Shown here in pieces: positions 1 to 620 of a stretch of 620 nt of DNA. The DNA comes from a phage. A program made the translations under genes and the position numbers. Each line of letters starts with the position of its first letter. Position 1 is the first letter of the stretch. The DNA lies in sequence record DQ006826.1; one strand, written 5' to 3'. The notes below the pieces were generated by a model. The model did no database searches, was not told where the DNA came from, and worked only from the letters and a program-made list of their open reading frames with translations.

Positions 1-25
1 AGTAGCAACCATTACTGGAGGCAAC
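1..25 (+). other. 3' portion of the phage 5' untranslated leader, truncated by the window edge
   Basis: Frame 2 is open from position 2 but has no ATG/GTG/TTG before 26, and homology to the A2 N-terminus begins exactly at Met26. In Qbeta the leader is about 60 nt (from memory), so the genome 5' terminus would lie roughly 35 nt upstream of the window. Confidence 0.6.
17..21 (+). promoter_or_regulatory. Shine-Dalgarno-like GGAGG ribosome-binding site for the A2 start codon
   Basis: GGAGG at 17-21, then a 4-nt spacer (CAAC), then ATG at 26-28. The arrangement resembles the purine-rich AGAGGA-CAU-AUG I recall upstream of Qbeta A2. The spacer is on the short side but workable. Confidence 0.55.
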
Positions 26-620
26 ATGCCACGTTTACCTAGGGGACTTCGATTCGGAGCGAATATGGAGGTCTTAAACGACTTCCAGGAACTCTGGTAT
101 CCAGAGTCCCACATCGATTCCGATATGATCTTCCCTTTGTATACCTTCAAAGGTAACATGGGTGGTTCGTTTTTCGATTCCTACGGCACAAATAATATTG
201 TCCGTCAGGTCCGGAAGACGCCACACCGTGCTACAGTTCCTATAGCCTCTTCTGGCTTAAGGCCCTGTACCTCTGTATGGTATGACCCAGCCAGCCTGCT
301 TTTCAGAATTCCTGAAATGAGGGCTGAGTGGGACAATGGCATGGGTGACACTGGAGATATTGTCTATAAAGACTTTCTCTTCAGTGCGCCGGCACCTAAG
401 GAGTTCGATTTCTCCAATTCCTTAGCGCCACGCTACAGTAATGCCTTTTCCGCCTTTAACGCCAAGTATGGCGTCATTATCGGAGAAGGGCACGAAACAC
501 TTAAGTATTTCGCGCTATTACTTCGCAGACTACATAAAGCAGTCCGTGCCGTTCGGCACGGAGATTTACGTGGTCTCCGGAGGATCCTTGACTCTTACCA
601 TAAGGGTCATTGGAAACCTG
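26..620 (+). CDS. A2: Maturation (A2) protein of a Qbeta-like ssRNA phage, N-terminal 198 codons; in Qbeta this protein is also the single-gene lysis protein that inhibits MurA. Partial, continues past the 3' window edge.
   Basis: Uninterrupted frame from ATG 26 to the end of the window; frame 1 has about 15 stops and frame 3 has 7 before position 426. Translation: MPRLPRGLRFGANMEVLNDFQELWYPESHIDSDMIFPLYTFKGNMGGSFFDSYGTNNIVRQVRKTPHRATVPIASSGLRPCTSVWYDPASLLFRIPEMRAEWDNGMGDTGDIVYKDFLFSAPAPKEFDFSNSLAPRYSNAFSAFNAKYGVIIGEGHETLKYFALLLRRLHKAVRAVRHGDLRGLRRILDSYHKGHWKP. This is collinear with the recalled Qbeta A2 N-terminus (MPKLPRGLRFGA...RQVRRTPHRVTVPIASSGLRP...APKEFDFSNSL...FSAFNAKYG...LLLRRL...SYHNGKWKP), with roughly 60% identity by eye and one 1-residue indel. 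No database search was run. Confidence 0.9.
   Translation, partial: MPRLPRGLRFGANMEVLNDFQELWYPESHIDSDMIFPLYTFKGNMGGSFFDSYGTNNIVRQVRKTPHRATVPIASSGLRPCTSVWYDPASLLFRIPEMRAEWDNGMGDTGDIVYKDFLFSAPAPKEFDFSNSLAPRYSNAFSAFNAKYGVIIGEGHETLKYFALLLRRLHKAVRAVRHGDLRGLRRILDSYHKGHWKP
88..110 (+). other. Predicted RNA hairpin within the A2 coding region: 7-bp perfect stem 91-97/101-107 (ACUCUGG/CCAGAGU) with UAU loop 98-100, extendable by G88-C110 and G89-C109 across an A90/C108 mismatch
   Basis: Inverted repeat read directly from the sequence. The homologous Qbeta segment (GAGCUCUGG UUU CCAGACCU, from memory) can form the same stem with a different loop. Confidence 0.4.
543..562 (+). other. Predicted RNA hairpin within the A2 coding region: 8-bp perfect stem 543-550/555-562 (UCCGUGCC/GGCACGGA) with GUUC tetraloop 551-554
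   Basis: Perfect inverted repeat read directly from the sequence. The codon-aligned Qbeta segment (ACCGCGCU GUUA AGCGUGGC, from memory) forms a stem in the same register with different base pairs, which is covariation. Confidence 0.5.

Follow-up and report, generated by a model that had tools for sequence, protein, structure and literature searches.

F-specific RNA coliphages serve as indicators of faecal pollution. The closest described relatives of the sequence analyzed here are the alloleviviruses M11 and MX1, in both of which the genes for A, coat, A1, and replicase follow one another in that order as the only four CDS. The subgroup formed by these two phages was sequenced in the 1990s and is placed in the NCBI taxonomy under Qubevirus durum, the same species as Qbeta. 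The literature on F-pilus binding and on lysis by inhibition of MurA concerns the A2 protein of Qbeta (PMC10610835, PMC12856241), and our literature search found no paper directly testing the A2 of M11 or MX1, MurA lysis included. For Allolevivirus, an inhibitory long-distance interaction at the ribosome-binding site (RBS) of the A protein is described as forming late, in passages of PMC4615214 and PMC6071253 that cite Beekwilder et al. (1996, J Mol Biol 256:8-19).

The window, by which the whole 620-nt stretch of DNA under analysis is meant (sequence record DQ006826.1), was assigned with near certainty as a DNA copy of genomic plus-strand RNA (approximately nt 32 to 651) from an F-specific ssRNA coliphage of the M11/MX1 subgroup, genogroup III (Fiersviridae, Qubevirus durum), the strain being different from the two members already sequenced. 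The major data for this assignment were blastn comparisons with 50,697 phage records, in which 44 records matched, every one of them an allolevivirus. Full-window ungapped matches were obtained for three records only: M11 (AF052431, nt 32-651) with 93.4% nucleotide identity over 100% of the window, MX1 (AF059242) with 89.7% over 100%, and the RefSeq entry NC_001890, also with 89.7%. Despite its title "Qbeta," NC_001890 was found to be the MX1 sequence, as it carries the locus tags MX1p1-4 and matches the window over the same coordinates and with the same identity as AF059242. At the amino acid level (tblastn plus alignment), identities were 94.4% for M11, 89.9% for MX1, 61 to 64% for Qbeta-type phages, and 37 to 43% for SP, FI, and NL95. 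The ungapped full-length match to M11 and MX1, together with the low identity to SP, FI, and NL95, led to the deduction that the window comes from a third strain of the M11/MX1 subgroup. Characters specific to the subgroup were also present, namely, a one-codon insertion relative to Qbeta, a UTR shorter by 5 nt, and the CAUUACUG:CAGUAAUG helix described below.

The two relatives could be ranked. M11 is collinear with the window over all 620 nt without gaps, and its 25-nt UTR segment, start position, and every RBS-sequestering arm are identical; it differs by 41 substitutions and 11 amino acid changes, and its nt 1 to 31 are absent from the window. MX1 is likewise ungapped, with the same UTR and long-range helices, and differs by 64 substitutions and 20 amino acid changes. 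The p-distances of the window in an 11-genome alignment were 0.066 to M11 and 0.103 to MX1, and quartet sites polarized by the Qbeta-type outgroup supported the grouping of the window with M11 by 9:2:1, leaving MX1 as the outgroup to this pair.

A different lineage had been favored in the original prediction, which was made from the letters alone and recognized a Qbeta-like ssRNA phage of a well-known family that is not Qbeta itself. These points were borne out, but the lineage offered as an example was not. An allolevivirus of genogroup IV (Qubevirus faecium, the group of SP, FI, and NL95) or a deep relative that is unclassified would account for the 76% identity of the N-terminal 29 residues to SP and FI and for the general RBS-sequestering architecture, which is common to both. 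It would not account for amino acid identities of 37 to 43% in that group against 94% for M11 and 90% for MX1, and the alignment to SP and FI needs several gaps, with blastn returning 120-nt patches at about 73% identity and no long match; the probability left to this reading is negligible. Qbeta proper, or a laboratory-evolved variant of it, was judged to have hardly any chance of being correct either. It could appeal to the shared NCBI species label and to the 89.7% match with an entry titled "Qbeta," but that entry is the MX1 sequence, and genuine Qbeta strains gave blastn matches over only the 3' 37 to 44% of the window, with 72 to 75% identity. The eight Qbeta-type genomes in the alignment differ from the window at 36 to 38% of positions (p-distance, 0.36 to 0.38), whereas their mutual p-distances do not exceed 0.087. 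The description of the encoded A2 as diverged accordingly holds relative to Qbeta and not relative to the sequenced phages, M11 standing at 94% amino acid identity.

The sister relationship to M11 was also weighed against a mosaic origin by recombination between M11 and MX1. A few clusters of M11-specific substitutions (for example, positions 322-328 and 370/384/386), at which the window equals MX1, would fit a mosaic, as would the sub-window 456-555, which is marginally nearer to MX1 (93 versus 92 matches per 100). The clusters are, however, equally explained by changes in the M11 lineage, for which 20 unique sites were counted versus 15 unique to the window. Since M11 was at least as close as MX1 in eight of nine sliding 100-nt windows and the polarized sites favored the pair of the window and M11, it was concluded that there is no recombination signal, and a recombinant is considered very unlikely. 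A DNA copy carried by a cell or plasmid, whether endogenised or cloned cDNA, could be suspected, since the sequence is presented in DNA form and cDNAs of alloleviviruses have been cloned in laboratories. This is less probable still: no matches were found in 5,426 complete Escherichia coli genomes, 72,556 PLSDB plasmids, or one genome each of 185,579 prokaryotic species, there is no flanking vector or host sequence in the window, and the signatures of purifying selection and RNA structure presented below fit a replicating RNA. Two findings had been named beforehand as speaking against the original prediction, a lack of similarity to alloleviviral A2 proteins and a location in a cellular DNA genome. 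Neither was made, as the similarity to A2 is overwhelming and the searched E. coli genomes, plasmids, and prokaryotic genome contigs gave no match.

The assignment to a third M11/MX1-type strain was next set against metagenome collections. No relative closer than M11 was found in the IMG/VR or JGI metagenome contigs, the scans of which returned one Qbeta-type contig (L007, the same as L008) with 63% amino acid identity and BR12 as its nearest phage, and one SP/FI-like contig (L009) with 44%. A 21-mer that spans the UTR and start of the M11 type had no exact match in IMG/VR. A large protein database gave no homologue at an E value of ≤1e-3, that collection being apparently without alloleviviruses. 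The window adds an ordinary strain to a family that has been studied well; its gene and its translational control are known, and the current understanding of the family is left unchanged. As the collections searched hold only two other sequenced members of the M11/MX1 cluster, a third strain, 6.6% distant in nucleotide sequence, increases the natural variation available.

The window begins inside the 5' UTR. Its first nucleotide is the counterpart of M11 nt 32 and MX1 nt 31, so that the first 31 nt of the genome lie outside it, and positions 1 to 25 (all features given here are on the plus strand) form the 3' part of the 5' UTR, identical to M11 nt 32-56 and MX1 nt 31-55. In M11, MX1, and Qbeta, the missing 5'-terminal segment forms a GGGG...CCCC hairpin; because this hairpin is absent, the window is near the 5' end of the genome and does not include it. 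The earlier claim that the window is the 5' end was therefore right as to the region and wrong as to the true terminus. The Shine-Dalgarno (SD) motif of the A2 cistron was read from the sequence as GGAGG at positions 17 to 21, 4 nt upstream of the AUG, its counterpart in Qbeta being GAGGA. The ATG at position 26 coincides with the annotated start of the A-protein CDS in both M11 (nt 57) and MX1 (nt 56). By these coordinates, A2 has the position expected of the first cistron of an allolevivirus genome, which has an SD of its own and follows a short UTR, with a start about 55 to 62 nt from the 5' end.

From ATG 26-28, no stop codon interrupts the frame before the window ends, giving 198 codons (positions 26-619) plus one base; the A2 (maturation or A-protein) CDS thus occupies positions 26 to 620, where the end of the window cuts the frame after 198 of approximately 421 codons, the N-terminal 47% of an allolevivirus A2. 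No other ORF of more than 50 aa was found on either strand of the window. The translation matched Pfam family PF03863 (Phage_mat-A) with 271 bits (E = 2.4e-80; curated cutoff, 25 bits), residues 32 to 198 aligning to profile positions 16-212 of 446, and it matched the Qbeta A2 structures (5VLZ/5VM7/7LHD and 5MNT) with E values of about 1e-77 and 62% identity. Residues 1 to 198 are collinear with residues 1 to 197 of Qbeta A2 with a single one-residue gap, an indel at residue 96. The prediction that the only long ORF is collinear with Qbeta A2 and encodes a maturation/lysis protein of this type was confirmed by these data, as was the presence in the translation of all five peptide blocks that it quoted: LPRGLRFGA at residues 4-12, RQVRKTPHRATVPIASSGLRP at 60-80, PKEFDFSNSL at 124-133, FSAFNAKYG at 141-149, and LLLRRL at 164-169. 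All five are identical or nearly so in Qbeta A2 (5MNT, 5VLZ, and 5VM7 with MurA), which has the same family and domain order and in which LPRGLRFGA, TVPIASSGLRP, PKEFDFSNSL, and FSAFNAKYG are conserved. AlphaFold2 prediction from the single sequence of these 198 residues gave an unusable model (mean pLDDT, 33.8); given the 62% identity to a solved structure, such a model was unnecessary. The full-length A2 and the downstream coat, A1, and replicase genes are assumed from synteny with M11, the window itself ending at codon 198.

The A2 is under strong purifying selection. The UTR is free of the 41 substitutions relative to M11, 29 of which affect codon position 3. The changed codons comprise 28 synonymous and 11 nonsynonymous cases, and dN/dS was 0.10 versus M11 and 0.14 versus MX1. 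The amino acid changes (window to M11) are H29R, I30V, M34T, S52T, K64R, A89S, E101V, K115N, S120N, A121T, and H156R.

Candidates for an embedded lysis gene were sought in the alternative frames, namely, the short ORFs at positions 162-245 and 336-425 and a +1-frame ORF beginning at ATG 441. The last is stop-free for 78 to 89 codons in MX1 and M11. Over the same span, however, 47 of 60 residues in the +1 frame are identical to M11, compared with 59 of 60 in the A2 frame. Because they are much less conserved than the A2 frame, the alternative-frame ORFs were rejected and, judged from sequence conservation, are probably not genes.

The second class of evidence concerns the RNA itself. The minimum free energy (MFE) of the 620-nt RNA was −266.8 kcal/mol, compared with −179.6 ± 7.4 kcal/mol for dinucleotide shuffles (z = −11.9) and −186.4 ± 6.4 kcal/mol for 100 synonymous-codon shuffles (z = −12.6), the best of which reached −200.9 kcal/mol. 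As the synonymous-codon shuffles keep the protein, the codon usage, and the RBS, an MFE so far below theirs was taken to mean that structure has been selected on top of coding.

Three long-range helices are predicted to bury the start site of A2; they are thermodynamic predictions for the 620-nt fragment taken by itself. Two of them together make up the SD-covering helix, the upstream arm of which (positions 10..22) consists of CAUUACUG at 10-17 and GGC at 20-22, which pair with CAGUAAUG at 436-443 and GCU at 432-434, respectively; SD bases 18 and 19 are predicted to be unpaired. This helix is found in both the MFE and the centroid structure with pair probabilities of 0.96 to 0.99, and its downstream arm (432..443) lies in A2 codons 136-140. 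In the third, the start-codon helix, CAUGCCA at positions 25..31, which includes the AUG, pairs with UGGCAUG at 337..343 with a probability of >0.99. A fourth helix closes the domain through pairing of positions 1..6 with 514..519, the equivalent in Qbeta being 32-37:551-556. For the AUG, the folding gave a predicted unpaired probability of 0.00 in the native sequence versus a mean of 0.55 in the shuffles, and none of the 100 synonymous shuffles showed equal occlusion. The SD region and AUG of A2 are thus predicted to be buried by long-range pairing in the equilibrium RNA. Rfam has no curated family for the region; the only matches at E ≤ 10 were two on the minus strand, both of chance level.

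The predicted fold was then compared across relatives. Independent folds of the first approximately 650 to 700 nt of M11, MX1, Qbeta, BR12, FrMerlot, SP, and FI gave the same long-range helices as the window for M11 and MX1, and the pairing of the RBS with a downstream segment recurred, with different arm sequences, in Qbeta, BR12, FrMerlot, SP, and FI. The arms in Qbeta are CUGAGUAUAA:UUAUACUCAG plus GAGGA:UCCUC, against CAUUACUG:CAGUAAUG in the window, and those in SP and FI are GGAGAAUCUA:UAGGUUCUCU. Beekwilder, Nieuwenhuizen, Poot, and van Duin reportedly used the M11 and MX1 sequences in their 1996 study.

When the window structure was projected onto the 11-genome alignment, 72.5% of cells were paired versus 40 to 45% in slid controls, and 23 pairs were changed on both sides versus 7 to 15 in the controls, the window structure having an advantage over the slid controls because its source is itself among the aligned sequences. 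The domain-closing helix had 89% of cells paired across the 11 genomes, with one compensatory pair (UA/CG). A stable local hairpin of 8 bp with a GUUC loop at positions 543..562, conserved in M11-type and Qbeta-type genomes, had 90% of cells paired and two double-sided changes (CG to or from UA and UA to or from CG). The SD-covering helix had 51% of cells paired, its register in M11-type genomes being offset by about 3 nt (about one codon) from that in Qbeta-type genomes, and because of this shift the column-by-column covariation is weak rather than strict. Among the window, M11, and MX1, long invariant runs were found at positions 1-34, 80-109, 250-273, 329-348, 416-447 (32 nt), 497-516, and 530-570 (41 nt). 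These runs contain every arm of the three helices covering the SD and AUG, the downstream arms of the SD-covering and start-codon helices lying in 416-447 and 329-348, respectively, and the local hairpin lies in 530-570. The invariance of the RBS-helix arms while synonymous sites elsewhere diverge provides independent support for the classical model of A2 translational control.

The predicted fold over the A2 start matches the control of A-protein synthesis known from alloleviviruses, in which, likewise, the SD and AUG are paired to a downstream complement. In MS2, the inhibitory complement is upstream, in the 5' UTR cloverleaf, whereas in the window the complements of the A2 RBS are within the A2 coding sequence, about 310 to 420 nt downstream. 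With the complement so far downstream, the long-distance interaction would form late, and A2 would consequently be made only from nascent strands. The support for this obtained here came from 5'-truncated "nascent" folds, in which the AUG was predicted to be unpaired with a probability of 0.3 to 0.8 up to nt 336 and of ≤0.05 once positions 337-343 were included, and we infer that A2 translation may be restricted to nascent plus strands. Ribosomes would start A2 only on such strands, before the replicase makes the downstream complements; A2 would thereby be held at a low copy number, and mature templates would be kept free of ribosomes.

The remaining data concern the activity expected of the protein. 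By homology to Qbeta A2, the A2 of the window would bind the pilus, bind RNA, and inhibit MurA, the last activity having been shown in Qbeta. One A2 per virion would attach both to the genomic RNA and to the F-pilus, the latter at its side, and A2, either free or virion bound, would inhibit MurA via its exposed N-terminal beta-region, leading to lysis. As quoted in PMC12856241 from Cui et al. (2017), most contacts of Qbeta A2 with MurA are made via residues 30-120, and the shortest lytic fragment reported there is residues 1-180. The window encodes the whole equivalent of this fragment.

The exposed beta-region corresponding to the contact range, codons 30-120 (positions 113..385), shows more divergence than any other part of the protein, with 52% identity to Qbeta A2 compared with 72% in residues 1-29 and 121-180, and it probably also faces the pilus. 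Eight of the 11 amino acid changes relative to M11 fall within residues 30-120, an enrichment that is only suggestive (binomial P, about 0.07). Given this low identity to Qbeta and this clustering of the M11 differences, the surface of the beta-region may evolve fast, and an M11-type A2 could engage MurA or the F-pilus unlike Qbeta or could hit a different lysis target. We regard this as improbable, but if it were true, the M11 cluster would lend itself naturally to comparisons that map the interface of A2 as a "protein antibiotic." The concentration of amino acid changes mostly in the region that contacts MurA in Qbeta could, in any case, guide mutagenesis. The "por" suppressor changes of Qbeta, which we take to be at L28, D52, and E125, correspond to S28, S52, and E126 in the window.

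The subdivision of Qubevirus durum was seen in alignment A4, in which window positions 1-620 were aligned with the homologous regions of genomes L001-L004, L007 and L010-L014. Two sharply distinct clusters, M11-type and Qbeta-type, were observed in this region. Nucleotide differences were 36-39% between the clusters and ≤11% inside either, and the between-cluster identity of the A2 N terminus was just 61-64%.

The RefSeq record NC_001890.1 carries the title "Enterobacteria phage Qbeta, complete genome". The record bears the locus tags MX1p1-4, its match coordinates and identity to the window are equal to those of AF059242 (MX1), and genuine Qbeta strains are unlike it at 36-39% of positions in the window region. 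The whole record is the MX1 sequence despite its title, and users taking it for the Qbeta reference could be misled. In its annotation, A2 is labelled "head maturation protease" and the coat protein "minor head protein".

The downstream arm of the helix predicted to cover the A2 Shine-Dalgarno sequence (window 436-443) corresponds to the codons for A2 residues 137-140. These are Y-S-N-A (UAC AGU AAU G) in M11-type A2, whereas the equivalent arm of Qbeta encodes Y-T-Q-A (UAU ACU CAG G). The arm in the 5' untranslated region (window 10-17) changes in step with the coding arm, being CAUUACUG in M11-type genomes and CUGAGUA in Qbeta, and two A2 amino acids thus seem to vary jointly with the untranslated leader. 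The register of the helix is offset by approximately one codon between the M11-type and Qbeta-type subgroups.

This long-range helix arm (436-443) also contains the ATG at position 441 of an ORF in the +1 frame relative to A2, which occupies window 441-620 and is open past the window end. The stretch without a stop from this ATG spans 89 codons in M11 and 78 codons in MX1, and a hydrophobic segment, LLLLVISGS, is located past the window end. Between the window and M11, only 47/60 residues were identical in the +1 frame, compared with 59/60 in the overlapping A2 frame. Given this lower conservation and the position of the ATG inside the helix, the ORF is probably not expressed.

A very stable hairpin, CCGUGCC-GUUC-GGCACGG, was predicted at window 543-562. 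It is invariant across all three M11-type genomes as part of a 41-nt invariant run, and is retained in Qbeta-type genomes via two compensatory pairs. Operator-like coat-binding stem-loops have been reported in the 5' half of the Qbeta genomic RNA (PMC8880383), and the hairpin may be the counterpart of one of these.

The sole allolevivirus contig matched by the window query in IMG/VR and the JGI metagenomes was a 2.9-kb Qbeta-type fragment (IMGVR_UViG_3300019216_000421, the same as Ga0179939_1057709), nearest to strain BR12 (p-distance 0.027). Since, in addition, an A2 homologue search of a large protein collection gave zero matches, alloleviviruses appear to be almost missing from these resources. 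The SP/FI-like metagenome contig L009 (MAVO01000006.1) has approximately 56 nt more ahead of the usual 5' end, and its positions 53-75 and 349-371 are perfectly complementary over 23 bp, a feature absent from every other genome folded. The extra sequence and the complement may represent a fold-back or chimeric assembly artefact.
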